Shown: in pieces, positions 32,212 to 59,424 of the stretch | Layout of the letters: each line of letters begins with the position of its first letter | How positions within the stretch are numbered: position 1 is the stretch's first letter | DNA from: Candidatus Eiseniibacteriota bacterium | Lineage (GTDB): Bacteria; Eisenbacteria; RBG-16-71-46 | Assembly: GCA_044222065.1 (NCBI GenBank) | Contig: JBGAOA010000007.1 | Location: 6,462 to 70,461 of the forward strand | Reading direction: 5' to 3' | Length of the DNA stretch: 64,000 nt | The notes under the pieces: model-generated | What the model was told of the DNA's origin: nothing | What the model saw: the letters and a program-made list of their open reading frames with translations, nothing else | The model's database searches: none | Program-made: the position numbers and the translations under genes

Positions 32212-33936
32212 CTACTCCGGGTCGGCGAGCGTGACCGCCCGCACTTCGTCCAACGTCGTCACGCCGTCGAGCGCCTTGCGGATGCCGCTCTTGCGCAGCG
32301 TCATGAGTCCGTCGGCGACCGAGCGCTGCTTGATCTGGTCTTCGTTGAGGCCGTCGAGGACCATGCGCCGGACGCCCTTCGTCACTTCCATCACCTCGAA
32401 CACCGCGACGCGGCCCTGATAGCCGGTCTGCTTGCAGACGATGCAGCCGCGTCCGCGCGCGAGTCTCTTTCCCACGAGCAGCGGCGCGTCCTCGCCGAGC
32501 GCCGCGACCGTTTCGGCGTCGGCGACGTACCACTCCTTGCAGCGCTCGCACACGCGGCGCACGAGGCGCTGCGCCATCACCATCGTCACGGCGGAGCCAA
32601 CGAGGTAGCGCGGCACGTCCATGTCGACGAGGCGCGTCACCGTGCCGGGCGCGTCGTTCGCGTGCACCGACGACAGCACGAGGTGGCCCGTGAGCGCCGA
32701 CTTCACCGCGATGTCCGCGGTCTCGGCGTCACGGATCTCGCCGATCATGATCACGTCCGGGTCCTGGCGCAGGATCGAGCGCAGCGCGCGCGCGAACGTC
32801 ATGCCGACCTTGTGGTTCGCGTGCACCTGGTTCACGGCCTCGATGTGGTACTCGATCGGGTCCTCGACCGACACGACGTTCTTGTGGACGCTCTTGATCT
32901 CGCCGAGCGCCGAGTAGAGCGTCGTCGTCTTTCCCGATCCCGTCGGGCCCGAGACGAGGATCATGCCGTAGGGCTGGCGGATCGATCGCTGGAACACCTC
33001 GAGGCCCTGGCCTTCGAGCCCGAGATTGTGGATCTCGCGGGTGAACGCCATCTTGTCGAACAGTCGCATCACGACCTTCTCGCCGAACGCGGTCGGCAGC
33101 GTCGAGACGCGGATGTCCACCTCGCGGTCCGGCAGGTGCACCGTGAGCCGGCCGTCCTGCGGCAGCAGCCGCACGGCGATGTCGAGGTCCGAGAGCACCT
33201 TGATGCGCGAGATGATCGCCATCTGCAGATTCTTCGGCGGCTTCATGACCTCGTGCAGCAGGCCGTCGATGCGGAAGCGCACGACGACGCGGTCGCGCGC
33301 GGGCTCGACGTGGATGTCGCTCGCGCGCTGGTCGATCGCCTCGGCGAGCATCAGGTTCACGAGCCGCACGACCGGCGCGTCCTCGACCTGCGCGCGCAGC
33401 GCGGCGAGGTCCACGTCGGACTCCTCGTCGCTCGCGGCCGTGAGGTCGATCTTGTCGAGGATCTCGCCGACCTGCTCGGTCGCGCGGATCTCCTGGTAGA
33501 ACTCCTCGACCGCCTCGCGCACCTCGCTCGGCTGCGAGATCCACACCTTGAGCGAGCAGCCCGTGAGCGCGCGCAGGTGGTCGAGCGACACGACGTCGAG
33601 CGGATCGCCGACCGCGACCTCGATCTGGTCCTCGTGCCGCGCGAGCGCCAGCATGCCGGCCTGCTTCGCGAGGTGTTCGGGGATCAGCTTCACCGCGACG
33701 GGGTCGGCCTTCGAGAGCCGCTCGGCATCCGCGATCGGGAGCGAGAACTGCTCGGCGAGCAGCTCGACGACGTGACGCTCCTTGAGCACGCCCATGCGGA
33801 CGAGCGTCTGGCCGAGACGTTCCTTCGGATCGCTGCGTCCCTTGAGCGCGCCCTGCAGCTGCTCGGGCGTCACGAGCCCGCGCTCGACGATCAACTCGCC
33901 GAAGCGCCGCGTCGAGAGGCGGAACGAAGTCGTCAT
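32212..33936 (-). CDS. pilB: Type IV pilus assembly ATPase PilB (GspE family)
   Basis: ATG at 33936 overlaps the pilT stop. Walker A GPTGSGKTT, a tetra-Cys motif CERCK...CIVCKQTG, and an N-terminal GSPII domain. Confidence 0.9.
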   Translation of the reverse strand: MTTSFRLSTRRFGELIVERGLVTPEQLQGALKGRSDPKERLGQTLVRMGVLKERHVVELLAEQFSLPIADAERLSKADPVAVKLIPEHLAKQAGMLALARHEDQIEVAVGDPLDVVSLDHLRALTGCSLKVWISQPSEVREAVEEFYQEIRATEQVGEILDKIDLTAASDEESDVDLAALRAQVEDAPVVRLVNLMLAEAIDQRASDIHVEPARDRVVVRFRIDGLLHEVMKPPKNLQMAIISRIKVLSDLDIAVRLLPQDGRLTVHLPDREVDIRVSTLPTAFGEKVVMRLFDKMAFTREIHNLGLEGQGLEVFQRSIRQPYGMILVSGPTGSGKTTTLYSALGEIKSVHKNVVSVEDPIEYHIEAVNQVHANHKVGMTFARALRSILRQDPDVIMIGEIRDAETADIAVKSALTGHLVLSSVHANDAPGTVTRLVDMDVPRYLVGSAVTMVMAQRLVRRVCERCKEWYVADAETVAALGEDAPLLVGKRLARGRGCIVCKQTGYQGRVAVFEVMEVTKGVRRMVLDGLNEDQIKQRSVADGLMTLRKSGIRKALDGVTTLDEVRAVTLADPE

Positions 33937-35069
33937 CGGGGCGCCGCCGATCGCGCCGGAACGCCGCCGGCGATGTTCGCCGCCCGGTAGTGGCGCTTCT
34001 GGAGGTGGGCGCGCTTCTCGGTGTCCTCGAAGTACGGATGCGCGACCTCGAAGTCGATCGTGCCGCGATCCACGAGCTCGGCGAGCGAATCGTCGAGCGC
34101 GATCATGTCCTCCTTGAGGCTCGTCGCGATCACGTTCGTGATCTGGTGGATCTTGTCCTCGCGGATCAGGTTCTGCACCGCCTGGTTGACGAACAGGATC
34201 TCGCGCGCCGCGACGCGCCCGCGGCCGTCCGTGCGCGGCAGCAGCACCTGGCACACGACGGCGCGCAGCGTGAGCGAGAGCTGCGAGCGGATCTGCGACT
34301 GCTGGTGCGGGGGGAACGAGTCGATGATGCGCGTCACGGTCTGCGAGGCGGACTGCGTCGCCATCGTCGAGATGACGAGGTTGCCCGTCTCGGCCGCGGT
34401 CAGCGCGATCGCCATGCTCGAGAGGTCTCGCATCTCGCCGACGAAGATCACGTGCGGCAGCTGCCGCAGCGCGCCGCGCAGGCCGCGCGCGTAGCTCTTC
34501 GTGTCCACGCCGACCTCGCGCTGTTCGATCACGGCGTTCTTCGGCTCGAACACGAACTCGATCGGGTCCTCGACCGTCACGATGTGCTTGCGCGCCGCAC
34601 CCTGGTTCAGCTGCTCGACGAGCGACGCGATCGTCGTGGACTTGCCGGCGCCGGTCGGCCCCGTCACGAGCACGAGGCCGCGCGTGAGCCCGAGCAGCCG
34701 CTGGACGACGTGCGGGGCGAGCCCGATCTCGGTCGGAAGCGGGATGCGCATGGGAACGATGCGGATCGCGGCGCCCCAGCAGCCCTTCTGGACGAACAGG
34801 TTGACGCGGAAGTGGGCCACGCCCGCGAGCACGTAGCGCGTGTCGAGTTCGAGGTCGCGCAGGAAGCGCTCGTGGAGCGCGGGGGTGAGGAAGCTCTCGG
34901 CGAGGCGGCGCGAGTCGTCCGGCGTGAGCGATTGCGTTCCCGTCATCGGCTGCAGCACGCCCGCGACCGTGACCATGACCGGGTGGCCCGCGGTCAGGAT
35001 GAGGTCCGAGGCGCCGAGTTCGGCCGCCCGCCTCAGGATCGGGTCGCGTTCGAGGAGGATGGCGTCCAT
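33933..35069 (-). CDS. pilT: Twitching-motility retraction ATPase PilT
   Basis: Walker A GPTGAGKST, His box and AIRNLIRE-like motif (AVQNLIREDKIHQI). Confidence 0.88.
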   Translation of the reverse strand: MDAILLERDPILRRAAELGASDLILTAGHPVMVTVAGVLQPMTGTQSLTPDDSRRLAESFLTPALHERFLRDLELDTRYVLAGVAHFRVNLFVQKGCWGAAIRIVPMRIPLPTEIGLAPHVVQRLLGLTRGLVLVTGPTGAGKSTTIASLVEQLNQGAARKHIVTVEDPIEFVFEPKNAVIEQREVGVDTKSYARGLRGALRQLPHVIFVGEMRDLSSMAIALTAAETGNLVISTMATQSASQTVTRIIDSFPPHQQSQIRSQLSLTLRAVVCQVLLPRTDGRGRVAAREILFVNQAVQNLIREDKIHQITNVIATSLKEDMIALDDSLAELVDRGTIDFEVAHPYFEDTEKRAHLQKRHYRAANIAGGVPARSAAPR

Positions 35070-35819
35070 GGGAACGGCAGCGAGCCTCGCAAACCTCGCT
35101 CACGCCCCCGAAGGGACGCGGCGAGCCACAGGTCGGACCCAGAATGCTCTTTCGGGCCTTCCGAAAGCGGGCAAGGGGGCATCGGAAGCGAGCGCTTCGG
35201 GACTTGAGAAGTACGGTGGAGTGGATCCCGAAACCGATTCGAGCGGCGAAGAATAGGCAGCCCCTCCCCGGGGTGTCAACGATCACGCATCGAGCGCGCC
35301 ACGAGCCTCGACGAGTTCGGCGCGAAGCGCGCGATCGCGCTCGAACTCCGCGCAAAGCGCACGATCCGAGCGCTCGTTCGTCGTGGTCTCGCATCTTCTC
35401 GCGCGCCGCAAGTGCGGCGATTCGAACTCCGATCGACCGGCTCGCGACTGGCCGCACCGGACGCGAACGTTGCACTCGCGGCTTGTACGGATTGCACGAT
35501 TCAACGTCCTTCCGCCTCGCGCCTCGCCGGACCCGCGTCGACCGTGCGGCATCCGCCCCCGAATTCCCCACATTTCCGGCACATCTGCGCCGAATGCCCC
35601 GCCCGGCTGCGCGAGGCGACCCGCAGGGCACGTTTCTCGCTGAACGGCCGCGCGGTTCGCCGGCGCGGGGGACGCCCCGGCGGCCATTGCGGTGCACACA
35701 GGACGTCCGGGTACCTCCTCTCCCGGCGCCGCCCTCTGACTCCTTCGCTCGACTCAAGCGGTGTCCGGTCGTCGTACGTGCAGGGATGCCACGCACGGCG
35801 CCGGCTGGGGGATAGCCGG

Positions 35820-36632
35820 ATGAACCTGCTTCGCTCCACGCTCACGCTCACGGCCCTCGGACTCGTGCTCATGGTCTCCTCGGTGCAGGCGCAGTCCACC
35901 TGGAACAGCGTCACCGTGCGCTGGACCACGCCGGGTGACGACAGTCTCGCGGGCACGGCCTCGGAGTTCGACCTGCGCTACTCGACTTCGCCGATCACGA
36001 TCGCGAACTTCGCCTCGGCGACCCGATTCCTCGCCACGCCCACGCCCGCGACCCCGGGGACGCAGCAGTCCGTGGTCGTGACGGGGCTCCAGCCGAGCAC
36101 GACCTACTATTTCGCGATCAAGACCGGCGACGACGTCCCGAACTGGTCGGGGCTCTCGAACGTCGTCTCGAAGACGACGACCGCGGCGCCCGACGACGTG
36201 CGTCCGGCGGCGATCGCGAACGTCGCGATCACGGCGCTCACCGACTCGTCCGCCGCGCTCGCGTGGACGGCGACCGGCGACGACAGCCTGACGGGCACGG
36301 CGACGACCTACGACGTCCGCTACTCGACGGCGCCCATCACGCTCGCGAACTGGGCGGCCGCGTCGCAGGCGACCGGTGAACCGGCGCCGGCGGTCTCGGG
36401 CACCGCGCAGTCGTTCACGGTGCGCGGTCTCGCGCGCCAGACCACCTACTACTTCGCGATCCGGGTCGCGGACGAGGGCGGCAATCCGTCGGCGCTCTCG
36501 AACGTTCCGAGCGGCACCACGACCGATACGCTCGCCCCGGCCGCCATCCGCGACCTGGCCGCGAGCTTCGTGTGGTTCGGCTCGACCCTGAGCGCGGTGC
36601 TGCCGCGGCAGCCGGAGCCTTCGTCCCGATGA
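35820..36632 (+). CDS. Secreted protein with three fibronectin type III-like repeats
   Basis: Signal peptide MNLLRSTLTLTALGLVLMVSSVQA. Three repeats of the pattern W(T/A)ATGDDSL(A/T)GTA..YD(L/V)RYST(S/A)PIT(I/L)ANW...TTYYFAI. Confidence 0.72.
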   Translation: MNLLRSTLTLTALGLVLMVSSVQAQSTWNSVTVRWTTPGDDSLAGTASEFDLRYSTSPITIANFASATRFLATPTPATPGTQQSVVVTGLQPSTTYYFAIKTGDDVPNWSGLSNVVSKTTTAAPDDVRPAAIANVAITALTDSSAALAWTATGDDSLTGTATTYDVRYSTAPITLANWAAASQATGEPAPAVSGTAQSFTVRGLARQTTYYFAIRVADEGGNPSALSNVPSGTTTDTLAPAAIRDLAASFVWFGSTLSAVLPRQPEPSSR

Positions 36633-37642
36633 TCTTCTTCACGACGCCGAGACGCCCGCGCACGGGCCGGCCCGCGTGGCGGCGATACTTCGCCGGCATC
36701 GTCGCGGTGCTGCTCGCGCTGCTCGCGCCGGCGCTCGTGAACGCGCAGACGCCGACCGACAGCCTGACGCTGACGTGGACCGCCACGGGCGACGACTCGA
36801 CGATCGGCACGGCGACGCTCTACGACATGAAGTACTCGACCTCGCCTATCACGCTCGCGAACTGGAGCTCGGCGCCGAGCGTGCCCGGCATGCCGGCGCC
36901 GCTGCCGTCCGGCACGCGCCAGACCGTGAGGCTGCGCGGCCTGTCGCGCGACACGACCTACTACGTCGCGATCCGCACCCGCGACGACGCGAGCAACTGG
37001 TCCGCGCTCTCGAACGTCGTGCGCTGGGACTGGACGCTCGACACGGCGCCGCCGTCGGCGCCGACCGGCGTCGCGGCCGCGAACGAAGGCGACAACGTGC
37101 GCGTGACGTGGAACGCGAACGCGGAGGCCGACCTCGCGGGTTACTTCGTGTACCGCGCGACCGCCGCGGGCGGACCGTTCACGAAGCTCACGCCGTCGCT
37201 TCTCACCGGCACGACGCAGTACCTCGACACGAACGTCCCGTCGGGCGCCGCGTCCGTGTGGTACCGCGTGACCGCGCGCGACCTCAACCTGAACGAGAGC
37301 GCGCAGAGCGCCGCGGCGCAGGCGGTCGTGGGCGGCACGAACGGCGTCGTCGCCGACTGGACGCTCTCGCCCGGCTATCCGAACCCGAGCCGCATCGGTC
37401 AGCCCGTGTGCTTGCCCATGGTCATCCCGGCGAGCGGCGCGGGCGAGGCGGTCGTGGACATCCTGAACGTCGCGGGCTCGCGCGTGCGGAGGCTCTACGT
37501 CGGCTCCGCGCCGAGCTGCCTCGGCGGCATCGAGTGGGACGGCCGCAACGACGCAGGCGCCGACGTCGCCCCCGGCGTGTACCGCGCGTGGCTGATCGTG
37601 GGCGGCCAGCGCAACGTCATCAAGCTGGTGCGCCAGCCGTGA
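36629..37642 (+). CDS. Secreted protein with FN3-like repeats and a Por-secretion-tail-like C-terminal domain
   Basis: ATG overlaps the upstream stop (ATGA). It has its own signal peptide. Repeats have the same pattern as the upstream gene. C-terminal tail VVDILNVAGSRVRRLY...WDGRNDAGADVAPGVYRAWLIVGGQRNVIKLV. Confidence 0.72.
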   Translation: MIFFTTPRRPRTGRPAWRRYFAGIVAVLLALLAPALVNAQTPTDSLTLTWTATGDDSTIGTATLYDMKYSTSPITLANWSSAPSVPGMPAPLPSGTRQTVRLRGLSRDTTYYVAIRTRDDASNWSALSNVVRWDWTLDTAPPSAPTGVAAANEGDNVRVTWNANAEADLAGYFVYRATAAGGPFTKLTPSLLTGTTQYLDTNVPSGAASVWYRVTARDLNLNESAQSAAAQAVVGGTNGVVADWTLSPGYPNPSRIGQPVCLPMVIPASGAGEAVVDILNVAGSRVRRLYVGSAPSCLGGIEWDGRNDAGADVAPGVYRAWLIVGGQRNVIKLVRQP

Positions 37643-37656
37643 GGAAGGAACCGCGC

Positions 37657-39345
37657 ATGAGACTCCGGATCGCACCGTTCAGCCTTGTCCTCGCGCTCAC
37701 GCTCGCGCCCGCCACGGCGCTCGCCGGCATCGAGCAGGCGGGCACGACGGCCGCGAACTTCCTCAGCGTCGGCTCGAGCCCGGCGACGCTCGCGATGGGC
37801 GGCGCGGGACTCGCGCGCACGGGCGAGCTCGGACTCACGACGTGGAACGCGGCGACGCTCGCGTGGATCGGCGAGACCCGCTACACGTTCTCGCACGCGT
37901 CGCTCACCGAGCAGAGTTCGCAGGAGTGGGCGGCTGCGGCCGGCCGCATGGGCCAGGGTCCGTGGCGCTGGGCGATGACCGGCCTCTACCAGGGCGACGG
38001 ATCGTTCGATGGCCGCGACGCGCTCGGCAATCCGACCGGCAGCTTCAACGTTTCGAGCATGGCGATCGGCGGCACGGTCGCGCGCAGCTTCAACGGGCTG
38101 TCGGGCGTCGGCGTCGGCTTCAAGTACGTGAGCGAGAACCTCGGCGGAGTCACGGGCTCGGGGATCGCGATGGACGCGGGCTTCACTTACGCCGCCGGCC
38201 CCGTCAGCCTCGGTGCCGCCGCGCAGAATGCGTTCGGCAACATGTCCTACTCCGGCGCGAAGTACTCGATGCCTTCGAACTACGGCGCGGGCGTCGCGCT
38301 GAACGTCCCGGCGAGCGGCGTCACGCTCGCGCTCGACGCGAACTTCCCGAAGGCCTACTACAACGACGTGCGCTTCGGCGCGGAGTGGCGCTACCGCGAG
38401 GCGATCGCGCTGCGCGGCGGCTACCGCATGGAACTCGGCGCGGGCGACGGCGAGCCGCTCTCGGGCCCGACGTTCGGCCTCGGCGCCGGCGCGAACGGAT
38501 TCTGGTTCGACTACGGCTTCATCGTCGGCGGCGGCGGCGCGAGCGGACAGCACCGCCTCGGCCTGACGTTCCGTCCCGGCGTGCTCAATCCGGGCGCGAC
38601 CTCGGTCGCCGCACCCGGCTCGGGCTACTCGACGGGATCGTCGAAGCCGCGCCTCGCGGACTCCGAGTCGCCGCGCGTCGAGAAGTCGCCGAAGCCTGCG
38701 AAGCCCGCGAAGCCGGCGAAGGTCGTGGCGCCGAAACCCGAGCCCGTCGCGAGCGCCGAGCCCGTGAAGCCGGCGAAGCCCGCGAAGGCCGAGAAGCGCG
38801 CGGTGAGCGTCGGCGACGATTCGCCCGTGCTCACGGACACGCCGCAGGCCGTGAAGATCGAGCCGACGAAGCCGGCCGAGCCGGCGTCCGACACCGAGGC
38901 CGCGGTCGTGTCGTCTCCGAAGACGAAGGCGCCGAAGGCCGAGAAGGTGAAGACGCCGAAGCCCGAGAAGGTGAAGGTCGAGAAGCCGAAGAAGACCAAG
39001 ACCCAGCCCGACGCTCCGCTCGCCCCGCTCACCGTGATCGCGCCCGAAGGCGGCGCGGTCGCGATGGCTGCGCCGAGCGAGCCGGCCGAAGCCGCGGCGC
39101 CGAAGGCGGCCGAGCCGGTGCGCGTCGAGGCTCCGAAGCCCGCGAAGACCGAGGCGCCGGCGCCGGTGGTCGCGAAGCCCGCGTCGCGCCCCGACAAGGT
39201 GAAGGTCGGCGCGGACGAGTCGCTCTCCGACATCGCGAAGCGCTGGGACACGAGCGTCGCCGCGATCATGATGGAGAACAACCTCGTCAGCGACCGCGTG
39301 AAGCCGGGTCAGACGCTCAAGCTGCCGCCGCCTTCGAAGAAGTGA
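37657..39345 (+). CDS. PorV/PorQ-family-like outer-membrane beta-barrel fused to a Lys/Pro/Ala-rich low-complexity linker and a C-terminal LysM domain
   Basis: GAGGAAGGA RBS. Signal peptide MRLRIAPFSLVLALTLAPATALA. N-terminal motif GTTAANFLSVGSSPATLAMGGAGLA resembles the PorV-family signature. A barrel of about 300 aa. PAKPAKPAK/KPEKVK repeats. C-terminal VKVGADESLSDIAKRWDTSVAAIMMENNLVSDRVKPGQTLKLP is a LysM fold. Confidence 0.68.
   Translation: MRLRIAPFSLVLALTLAPATALAGIEQAGTTAANFLSVGSSPATLAMGGAGLARTGELGLTTWNAATLAWIGETRYTFSHASLTEQSSQEWAAAAGRMGQGPWRWAMTGLYQGDGSFDGRDALGNPTGSFNVSSMAIGGTVARSFNGLSGVGVGFKYVSENLGGVTGSGIAMDAGFTYAAGPVSLGAAAQNAFGNMSYSGAKYSMPSNYGAGVALNVPASGVTLALDANFPKAYYNDVRFGAEWRYREAIALRGGYRMELGAGDGEPLSGPTFGLGAGANGFWFDYGFIVGGGGASGQHRLGLTFRPGVLNPGATSVAAPGSGYSTGSSKPRLADSESPRVEKSPKPAKPAKPAKVVAPKPEPVASAEPVKPAKPAKAEKRAVSVGDDSPVLTDTPQAVKIEPTKPAEPASDTEAAVVSSPKTKAPKAEKVKTPKPEKVKVEKPKKTKTQPDAPLAPLTVIAPEGGAVAMAAPSEPAEAAAPKAAEPVRVEAPKPAKTEAPAPVVAKPASRPDKVKVGADESLSDIAKRWDTSVAAIMMENNLVSDRVKPGQTLKLPPPSKK
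38640..39200 (+). repeat. Coding low-complexity K/P/A/E-rich region including tandem PAK tripeptide repeats
   Basis: AAGCCNGCGAAGCCNGCGAAGCCGGCGAAG tandem codon repeats at about 38688-38722, then KPEPV/KAPKAEKVKTPKPEKVK-type repeats. Confidence 0.7.
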
Positions 39346-39405: not shown

Positions 39406-39750
39406 TCACTCGCGCGCGGGGCCCGGCGAGTACTTGAGGACTTCGACGCGCTCGAGCGTGACGAGCCCGTCGCCGATCATCTCGTCGCACACGGGCAGGA
39501 ACGCGCGGATGCGGTCCTCGCGGTCCACGATCTCGACGACGAGCGGCAGGTCCTCCGAGAGCCTCAGCACCTTCGCGGAGTGGAGCCGGCTCTTCGCGCC
39601 GAATCCAAGCACGCCGCGCGTCACGGTCGCGCCCGCGAGCCCGCGCTCGCGCGCTTCGGCCACGAGCGCTTCGTAGAGCGGCCGGCCGCGCCAGCGGTCG
39701 GCCTCGCCGATGAACACGCGCAGCAGCAGTCCGTGACCTTCGAGCTTCAA
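39406..39750 (-). CDS. DUF190 (PII-like) domain protein, the usual partner of CrcB/fluoride-resistance loci
   Basis: MKLEGHGLLLRVFIGEADRWRGRPLYEALV... matches the DUF190 family pattern. Lies directly downstream of crcB. Confidence 0.72.
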   Translation of the reverse strand: MKLEGHGLLLRVFIGEADRWRGRPLYEALVAEARERGLAGATVTRGVLGFGAKSRLHSAKVLRLSEDLPLVVEIVDREDRIRAFLPVCDEMIGDGLVTLERVEVLKYSPGPARE

Positions 39751-39769
39751 GGGGCACCTCCGGCGCGGC

Positions 39770-40144
39770 TCAGAGTCTCACGGCCGCGGCGTAGCCCGCG
39801 AACGCGGCCAGTACGCCGACCCCGAGCGAGCCGAGCGCATAGCCGGCCGCGGCCGTCCACTGGCCGTCCCTGAGCAGCGCGAGCGCCTCGTACGAGAACG
39901 CCGAGAACGTCGTGAAGCCGCCGAGCACGCCGACGATCGCGAACAGCCGGAACGGGGGAGGGACGAGCGCGCGCTCGAGCGCGAGCGCGCCGAGGAATCC
40001 GATCGCGAGCGAGCCCGCGGCGTTCACGGCGAACGTCCCCCACGGGAACGCCCCGCCCGCGGCGCGCTGCACGAGCCCCGAGAGCCACCAGCGCAACAGG
40101 CTGCCGATCGCGCCACCGCCCGCGACCAGCAGCACGTCCCTCAC
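39770..40144 (-). CDS. crcB: Fluoride ion channel CrcB (Fluc)
   Basis: GTG at 40144 overlaps the E1alpha stop (GTGA). Motifs GGAIGSLLRW, GTFAVNAAGSLAIGF and GGFTTFSAFSYE. 124 aa. Confidence 0.8.
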   Translation of the reverse strand: MRDVLLVAGGGAIGSLLRWWLSGLVQRAAGGAFPWGTFAVNAAGSLAIGFLGALALERALVPPPFRLFAIVGVLGGFTTFSAFSYEALALLRDGQWTAAAGYALGSLGVGVLAAFAGYAAAVRL

Positions 40145-58654: not shown

Positions 58655-59391
58655 GCTGGCTGCGCCGCCAGCAGCTCCGTCCCGCCTCGAAGTGGGCGGT
58701 GTGGCGCTACAACTGGATCGCGAACGCGGCGATCCTCTCGGCGCTCGAGCGCGTCGCGCCGCACGCGCGCGGCGCGCTGCTCGACATCGGCTGCGGTCGG
58801 CGGCCGTTCGAGTCCGCGTTCCGCGGACGGCTCACGCGCTACTGGGGCGTGGACCTGCCGGGCTCGCGCGACATCGTGGGCCGCGCGCCGGACGCGTTCG
58901 CGGTCGGTGAGGCGCTGCCGATCCGCTCGGGCTCGATGGACACGGTGATCGGGCTGTCGCTGCTCAACTACCTCGCCGAGCCGGCGCTCACGCTCGCCGA
59001 GGCTCAGCGCGTGCTCAAGCCCGGAGGGGTCGCGATCTTCGAGTTCCCGCAGAGCATGCCGCTCGACCCGCATTCGCCGGACTACTACCGCTTCACGAAG
59101 TTCGCGGCCGCGCGGCTCCTCGAACAGGCCGGCTTCGAGGTCGTCGAACGGCTGCCGATCGGCGGGCTGTGGCGCCGCGTGGGGATGTCGGTGATCCGCG
59201 GGCTCAACCGCCTCAACCGCGGCCCAACGCGCGTGCTGACCGAGCTGCCGGTGCGGGCGCTCTACGTGGTCCTGCAATCGTGGTACGCGCTCCTCGACCG
59301 GCTGTTCTTCGAGGATTCCGAGGCGCTCAGCCACCTCGTCGTCGCCCGCAAGCGTTCGCCGGCGGGCGAGGGGCCGCGATTCGGCCGTTGA
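58651..59391 (+). CDS. Class I SAM-dependent methyltransferase
   Basis: GTG overlaps the upstream stop. Motif I LLDIGCGRRP and post-I/II segments VLKPGGVAIF. Confidence 0.78.
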   Translation: MSWLRRQQLRPASKWAVWRYNWIANAAILSALERVAPHARGALLDIGCGRRPFESAFRGRLTRYWGVDLPGSRDIVGRAPDAFAVGEALPIRSGSMDTVIGLSLLNYLAEPALTLAEAQRVLKPGGVAIFEFPQSMPLDPHSPDYYRFTKFAAARLLEQAGFEVVERLPIGGLWRRVGMSVIRGLNRLNRGPTRVLTELPVRALYVVLQSWYALLDRLFFEDSEALSHLVVARKRSPAGEGPRFGR

Positions 59392-59424
59392 CGCAATTTC
59401 GAACGCTTTGTTAGCGTCTCCGCC

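Follow-up and report, generated by a model that had tools for sequence, protein, structure and literature searches.

The 64,000-nt stretch of DNA studied here (the window) belongs to a Candidatus Eiseniibacteriota bacterium of the Eisenbacteria (GenBank assembly GCA_044222065.1, contig JBGAOA010000007.1, positions 6,462 to 70,461). It contains a 750-bp non-coding island between pilT, which encodes a type IVa pilus retraction ATPase, and a divergently transcribed operon for two FN3 proteins and a PorV-family outer-membrane protein. This island is probably a bidirectional transcription-control region conserved across the Eisenbacteria, with a sigma-70-type promoter toward pilT, a sigma-54-type promoter and its activator sites toward the FN3 operon, and two long leaders (Table 1). 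The sigma-54-type promoter at 35627-35641, which is its main feature, was omitted from the initial annotation of this DNA, which had drawn attention to the island as an exceptionally long gap of reduced GC content.

A syntenic island without coding signal

Pfam and NCBIfam searches of the flanking genes place the gap at exactly 35070-35819 and confirm that it divides the divergent pilT block from the FN3/PorV-like block. In a gene call based on GC content at third codon positions (GC3) it is the largest of 57 intergenic gaps in the window, the next-largest measuring at most 577 bp and the majority less than 150 bp, which bears out its description as an exception among tightly packed genes.

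The island is no peculiarity of this contig. A one-genome-per-species scan with PilT yielded 54 loci, and the same arrangement, with an orthologue of the first FN3 gene lying divergently upstream of pilT across a long gap, was found in 32 other Eisenbacteria genomes (PilT identity 70-82%; the PilT protein of the window itself marks the organism as one of the Candidatus Eisenbacteria, and the nearest other PilT sequences are at most 84% identical to it). The gap measures 498-956 bp in these genomes, mostly 680-830 bp. Since a long gap occupies the same syntenic place in all 32, it represents a phylum-wide trait and not an accident of a single genome. The alignment of the interval across relatives, which had been proposed as a check, revealed conserved blocks: in the multiple alignment of 33 gaps (the window and the 32 other genomes) conservation is restricted to discrete short blocks and does not take the form of codon-like stretches. 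The same block-wise pattern is seen with the locus L055, the closest of the relatives compared at the DNA level, whose PilT is 82% identical to that of the window.

The length of the island can be broken down accordingly, into 210 bp between the pilT start and the -35 box, 191 bp of spacer, 157 bp between the activator site and the sigma-54-type element and 193 bp between this element and the FN3 start, which add up to about 750 bp. Across the genomes the first, third and fourth of these lengths are tightly kept, and spacers as short as 14 bp and as long as 357 bp occur. The island thus owes its length to two promoter-plus-leader modules, an enhancer-promoter looping distance and filler.

Several long open reading frames (ORFs) cross the gap, namely one of 223 aa on the plus strand (35144-35815) and one of 138 aa on the minus strand, and in a related locus (P0002, JGI contig, sample 3300056388), whose PilT comes nearest to that of the window, the public gene call has placed a 205-aa ORF inside an FN3-pilT gap of 937 bp. 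These ORFs could be taken as signs of a decayed pseudogene or of a hidden small coding sequence with an unusual start, an explanation that we consider extremely improbable. The coding GC3 signal stays strong as far as the start codon of pilT, disappears, and is back near 35810-35820; the flanking genes reach 0.90-0.97, as against 0.55-0.80 in all three phases of the gap. The gap ORFs have no Pfam match at E<1, and none of the six frames of the gap has a tblastn match at E<1e-3 in the 54 related loci. The gap therefore shows none of the marks of a protein-coding gene or pseudogene, i.e. codon-position bias, family match or conserved translation, and its conservation in short blocks is likewise not of a codon-like kind. 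As for the ORF of P0002, it belongs to no Pfam family and lies on the pilT strand, opposite to the longest gap ORF of the window, and is most likely a high-GC artefact like the gap ORFs of the window, which the initial annotation had rightly dismissed as such. The non-coding character of the island is thereby upheld, and no genuine small coding sequence missed by the gene call was found by GC3, Pfam or six-frame tblastn.

The reduction in GC content is real. The stretch 35100-35500 (0.658) falls into the 5th percentile of 400-bp windows, but the dip is mild and was somewhat overstated: the whole gap (0.691) stands at the 22nd percentile, compared with a window mean of 0.714, and 35500-35819 (0.728) even exceeds this mean.

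The sigma-54-type element and candidate activator sites

The most conserved block of the gap has the sequence GGGCAYGYTTCGTGCTG in the relatives; that of the window is GGGCACGTTTCTCGCTG (35626-35642). This block closely resembles the -24/-12 promoters of sigma-54, for which the consensus mrNrYTGGCACG-4 bp-TTGCWNNw has been given (PMC2725144). The element of the window, GGGCACGTTTCTCGCT, departs from TGGCACG-N4-TTGCW by two mismatches, and its GG and GC are exactly 10 nt apart, as the geometry of the consensus demands. All 33 genomes have it, on the FN3 strand and 138-205 nt ahead of the FN3 start. The bases between the two boxes vary, but GGCA and GC never do, and the T in front of GC is shared by 32 of the 33. 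Within the 64 kb of the window it is the sole match both to TGGCACG-N4-TTGCW at up to two mismatches (6.8 expected) and to GGCAY-N6-YGCW (6.4 +/- 2.6 expected). Of the 66 sigma-54-type matches that 335 kb of Eisenbacteria loci contain, 58 share the strand of the FN3 operon. From the position of the element, transcription of the FN3 operon is predicted to start near 35652 on the plus strand.

Sigma-54-like sequences are depleted in the window as a whole, with one match where 6.4-6.8 would be expected, and all of 100 dinucleotide shuffles had at least one. Such a depletion is consistent with selection against spurious sigma-54 sites.

Transcription by sigma-54 requires a bacterial enhancer-binding protein, EBP (PMC2725144), and sites for such an activator would be expected about 80-200 bp upstream of the element. 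Two TTGCA(C/G) sites form a direct repeat there, 22 bp apart, and lie at -157 and -135 from the sigma-54-type element in the window. In nearly all genomes the first T of (C)GTTGCA is found at -153 to -166 and the second TGCA at -134 to -137. This fixed position and spacing fits the upstream activator sites needed by sigma-54 promoters, and the TTGCA sites are candidate sites that probably bind an EBP.

Two more elements of the form GGCACG-N4-CTGCW occur in relatives, one GGCACGCAAGCTGCT-like and one GGCACGGGGGCTGCA-like, both non-palindromic and with differing spacers (e.g. L020:2146-2161 and L020:458-473, minus strand, with equivalents in L007, L015, L016, L019, L021, L022, L026, L027 and L032). 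They lie in 350-430-bp gaps upstream of genes for FN3-like proteins of about 430 aa and PorV-like proteins of the same cluster, and each is preceded by a CGTTGCR motif. In the window, the genes that match these separate FN3-like and PorV-like units form one operon without internal gaps. The extra elements suggest a small sigma-54 regulon of surface proteins.

The sigma-70-type pilT promoter and its predicted leader

On the opposite strand, the initial annotation had reported a TTGACA hexamer directed toward pilT at about 35272-35277. The hexamer exists, at 35279-35274, and proves to be a conserved -35 box. A sigma-70-type promoter should show TTGACA and a TATAAT-like hexamer, separated by 16-18 nt and followed by a gene; TTGACA-18-TATTCT is of this form, scores 10/12 and is the sole sigma-70-like match in 34900-36000, where shuffles lead one to expect 0.0. 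The pattern TTGAC-N18/19-TAT(C/G)CT recurs on the pilT strand and in the same place in 31 of the 33 genomes, with the -35 box 109-258 nt, mostly 180-245 nt, ahead of the pilT start. A transcript start near 35243 on the minus strand can be predicted from it, which would give pilT a leader whose length is kept among the relatives and whose sequence is little conserved in the alignment of the 33 gaps. The fold of this leader has no extra stability over shuffles, and no recognisable Shine-Dalgarno sequence precedes the ATG (35070-35090) in the window or in the relatives.

In all, the pilT side is much like canonical sigma-70 promoters with -35 and -10 boxes and long 5' untranslated regions (UTRs), given its conserved TTGACA-18-TATTCT and a leader of about 170 nt. 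It differs from them in the GC-shifted -10 box (TATCCT or TATGCT in relatives) and in a leader that has neither a recognisable conserved element nor a Shine-Dalgarno sequence. Elsewhere in the window, TTGAC-N18-20-TAnnnT lies directly upstream of a gene only once (59388-59417, plus strand; gene start 59464), at the end of the preceding gene.

Long 5' UTRs were one of three contents that had been suggested for the island, and the conserved divergent promoter elements, each about 170 nt upstream of its gene (pilT or FN3), speak for them. The suggestion of a shared regulatory hub stands in part: there are conserved promoter elements with activator-type sites between them, but they form two adjacent modules, and none of our tests points to co-regulation of the two operons. 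The third, a small RNA, is considered next.

The spacer and the case for an RNA gene

The spacer between the two modules (35280-35467) has the lowest conservation and the most gaps of the 33-genome alignment, and does not align with L055. The gap has no second copy of its sequence in the window, and its internal repeats are short and chance-like; a remnant of a repeat or mobile element could be ruled out on these grounds.

The length of the gap and the covarying hairpins within it may evoke an independent small or structured RNA gene in the spacer, or a stable RNA processed from the FN3 leader. A weak ASdes-like match at 35288-35348 points in the same direction (20.7 bits against a cutoff of 40), as do covarying hairpins just upstream of the activator sites, e.g. 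CCAGGGAAGGTCGCCCTGG, in many relatives although not in the window. We nevertheless hold an RNA gene to be very unlikely. The proposed scan against Rfam 15 returned no family at gathering score in the window or in 12 related loci, and at E<=10 the window matches are at chance level, the best of them, below threshold, having 23.9 bits against a cutoff of 80. The initial annotation had found no hallmarks of tmRNA, SRP RNA, RNase P or tRNA, and no tRNA or tmRNA was found in the window here. Nor is there a terminator-like site in the gap region. The stretch that would be left for such a gene, 35280-35467, is conserved in neither sequence nor length, and the hairpins that the genomes do share lie between the sigma-54-type element and the Shine-Dalgarno sequence of the FN3 gene, as expected of a leader; the folding energies of the two leaders are ordinary.

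One conserved hairpin of the relatives (in L015, L016, L020 and L005, for example) reads CCAGGG-AAGGTCG-CCCTGG, with a covarying stem and an invariant loop, and stands just upstream of the activator sites in the FN3 sense. A second covarying hairpin, GACCC...GGGTC or GGCCCC...GGGGCC, comes before it, and many genomes carry the two in their spacer. In the window, the stretch that aligns with the CCAGGG hairpin (about 35440-35467) holds no recognised equivalent.

The FN3 leader

The position of the sigma-54-type element implies an FN3 leader of about 168 nt, which would begin with a stem-loop. When the leader of the window is folded to minimum energy, this stem-loop starts at a conserved (C)GCGG, at about +1 to +3 of the predicted transcript, and an equivalent is present in nearly all genomes. 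Within a clade of 18 genomes that permits its alignment, 95.8% of the cells are paired and nine of the 12 pairs show compensatory changes; 0 of 500 shuffles reach this value, and slid controls attain 22-46%. Because its G-U pairs fit only the FN3-sense (plus) strand, the stem-loop is an RNA feature of the FN3 transcript. One clade conserves both the GUG of the loop and the flanking CCGCGG, a hint of a more specific role than protection of the end.

Similar stem-loops are known from other bacteria. For example, the leader of E. coli ompA carries a 5'-terminal stem-loop that stabilises the mRNA. The FN3 leader resembles this type in that the hairpin lies 1-2 nt from the predicted 5' end and keeps its structure while its sequence varies. 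The differences are that a role in end protection is here suggested by position, and that the GUG loop and CCGCGG flanks are conserved in a clade.

A second hairpin, block A, ranks second in conservation among the blocks of the gap and reads CCGCACTCTGCAYCTTG...GCGG in the relatives. When folded locally, nearly every genome closes the same helix, and the outer pairs vary from genome to genome. Counted over fixed columns, the paired fraction is 69%, a value that 0 of 500 shuffles reach (62% in shuffles); in about half of the sequences two pairs flip from GC to CG. A covariance model of block A finds it in the window at 35715-35774 (41.7 bits) and once per locus, with no convincing further copy in the 409 kb searched; realignment with this model left the register of the outer helix no better. 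When metagenomes were scanned with a 17-mer of block A, at least 120 loci were returned, swamped by chance matches, and among the matches listed only L079 is a true FN3-pilT locus.

RNAalifold, applied to all 33 leaders and to sub-blocks, recovers almost nothing, since the variable hairpins cannot be aligned, and in no run did it show a structure other than the 5' stem-loop and block A. In the 18-genome clade it gave a hint of block A as an anti-Shine-Dalgarno sequence; this candidate was rejected, as the duplex energy with the Shine-Dalgarno region lies at the median (0.59) of control segments from the same leaders. With neither a terminator nor sequestration of the Shine-Dalgarno sequence by block A, no expression platform of the riboswitch type was recognised.

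It is conceivable, if rather doubtful, that the FN3 leader of about 168 nt is a previously undescribed, Eisenbacteria-wide cis-regulatory RNA, composed of a covarying 5' stem-loop and a hairpin with the near-invariant CGCAC-CUGCAYCUYG. A conserved hairpin with conserved unpaired sequence, a long leader and a strong ribosome-binding site next to it are shared with cis-regulatory leader RNAs and riboswitches, from which the FN3 leader differs in having no Rfam match, no terminator-type platform and moderate covariation.

Weighing the proposed divergent control region

Several points weigh against the interpretation of the island as a divergent control region. The -12 box of the window is TCGCT where the relatives have GTGCT. 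Many genomes read GCACG-TTT-CGTGC at the sigma-54-type block, i.e. an inverted repeat or partial palindrome GCACG-N-CGTGC. No GAFTGA, RpoN-box or EBP Walker-A motif was found in the 64-kb window or in the 54 loci, and our literature search found nothing relevant on Eisenbacteria with sigma-54, RpoN or pili. Both transcript starts are predictions. Moreover, neither of the predicted leaders is more stable when folded than dinucleotide-shuffled sequence (z = -0.8 and -0.3), and the support of block A by covariation is moderate. Thus, the several short hairpins that the initial annotation had listed do exist, but without making the leaders more stable than shuffled sequence.

The inverted repeat, in particular, could mean that the GGCAC...TGC block is the palindromic operator of a dimeric transcription factor and that the FN3 operon is read from another, unrecognised promoter. 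L008 and L012 alter both arms together (GCATG...CATGC), as would be expected of an operator, and the absence of RpoN or activator gene motifs from the window and the 54 loci agrees with it. However, the palindrome is broken in the window, in L002, L013, L020-L022, L035 and others, and through all of this GGCA and TGC at -24/-12 stay essentially fixed. The paralogous elements GGCACGCAAGCTGCT and GGCACGGGGGCTGCA are not palindromic and yet keep GG-N10-GC. The orientation of the element and its distance to the FN3 start are constant, and no other conserved promoter-like element lies between the block and the FN3 gene. An operator is therefore unlikely in our opinion, and a sigma-54-type promoter remains the preferred reading of the block.

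How the control region might work

If the island is such a divergent control region, the housekeeping RNA polymerase would start near 35243 on the minus strand and transcribe pilT, pilB, pilC, the pilins and PilM up to the secretin. On the other side, sigma-54 holoenzyme would sit at 35627-35641 and await an EBP bound at 35468-35506, the roughly 120 bp between the activator sites and the sigma-54-type element serving as looping DNA. Upon activation, transcription of the FN3/FN3/PorV-LysM operon would begin near 35652 on the plus strand, and the 5'-terminal stem-loop, by analogy with known 5' hairpins, would probably protect or stabilise the end of the FN3 mRNA. The spacer of about 190 bp would be filler under no detectable constraint.

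The closest known counterparts are the sigma-54 promoters of glnAp2 with NtrC and of pilA with PilR (Pseudomonas, Myxococcus, Geobacter). The island shares with them GG-N10-GC, a near-match to TGGCACG-N4-TTGCW, tandem conserved sites some 110-130 bp ahead of the -24 element and the vicinity of type IV pilus genes. By contrast to pilA/PilR, the putative target is an FN3/PorV-family surface operon divergent from pilT and not a pilin gene. In the Geobacter pilR-pilA system, furthermore, the EBP gene is adjacent (PMC2725144), whereas no activator gene motif lies near the island.

Flanking genes and translation starts

Table 1. Coordinates of the island's features and of the genes beside it, in positions of the window
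Feature	Position	Strand	Description
pilT	33933..35069	-	PilT/PilU type IVa pilus retraction ATPase; Pfam T2SSE; NCBIfam TIGR01420, 382.7 bits (cutoff 319)
Predicted pilT 5' leader	35070..35243	-	about 174 nt, from the promoter position
Sigma-70-type promoter toward pilT	35250..35279	-	-35 TTGACA 35279-35274, 18-nt spacer, -10 TATTCT 35255-35250
Variable spacer between control modules	35280..35467	.	GC-rich imperfect palindromes, nothing conserved
Candidate upstream activator sequence	35468..35506	+	CGTTGCAC 35468-35475, GATTGCAC 35490-35497, then GATTCAACG
Sigma-54-type -24/-12 promoter	35626..35641	+	GGGCACG-TTTC-TCGCT; GG 35627-35628, GC 35639-35640
5'-terminal stem-loop of predicted FN3 mRNA	35650..35695	+	minimum-energy fold of the window leader
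Block A hairpin	35723..35768	+	stem CCGGCGCCGC with GCGGTG(T)CCGG around conserved CU-rich sequence
Shine-Dalgarno-like sequence and FN3 start	35807..35822	+	GGGGGA 35807-35812, ATG 35820; (T)GGAGG 7-9 nt before ATG in relatives
First FN3 protein	35820-36632	+	signal peptide; Pfam, NCBIfam; ATG 35820
FN3 + FlgD_ig protein	36629-37642	+	Pfam, NCBIfam
PorV/PorQ-family outer-membrane protein	37639-39345	+	C-terminal LysM; PorV_fam 101 bits (cutoff 90)

The minus-strand pilus block is headed by pilT, which is followed by pilB, pilC, the pilins, PilM, a PilQ-type secretin and a prepilin peptidase. On the plus strand, adjoining genes of the FN3/FN3/PorV-LysM operon (35820..39345) overlap by 4 nt. 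To judge from the sequences before the start codons, pilT, which has no Shine-Dalgarno sequence, and the FN3 gene, with its strongly conserved GGAGG, seem to differ in their mode of translation initiation.

In relatives, though not in the window, the FN3 start codon lies in the loop of an inverted repeat, CAACGCT-CATGA-AGCGTTG (e.g. L020:5185-5215, minus strand), and L029 changes both arms of it together. This repeat could serve as a hairpin in translation initiation or simply result from the conservation of the MKRW N-terminus. Further along the window, a crcB (fluoride channel) and DUF190 pair on the minus strand (39406-40144) directly follows a gene for 2-oxoacid dehydrogenase E1, with an overlap of 4 nt; neither a fluoride riboswitch nor any other Rfam family was found anywhere in the window.

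Implications

To our knowledge, the Eisenbacteria have no cultured representative, and no promoter or regulatory motif has been published for them. A divergent control region is of a known kind, and what sets the present one apart from the classical examples is its phylum and its target. Beyond the predictions that can be drawn from it, the island looks like ordinary regulatory DNA rather than an element of a new kind, and among the items of the gap only the conserved leader RNA could be new in kind.

These predictions are nonetheless testable. They comprise a housekeeping-type promoter consensus TTGAC-N18/19-TAT(C/G)CT for the Eisenbacteria and a sigma-54-type consensus, GGGCAYGYTTCGTGCTG, accompanied by activator sites whose distances are fixed, for both of which analysts of metatranscriptomes are here offered exact coordinates. 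The results may also aid annotation, as gene callers sometimes put spurious ORFs into the FN3-pilT gap. If the leader of the FN3 operon should indeed be a cis-regulatory RNA, it would be the first RNA motif defined for the uncultured Eisenbacteria; it could act as a platform to which a protein, a small RNA or a ligand binds and would add post-transcriptional control of the PorV/FN3 operon to control by sigma-54. Finally, the FN3 and PorV-family surface proteins encoded beside the type IV pilus genes emerge as a candidate small sigma-54 regulon of this phylum.

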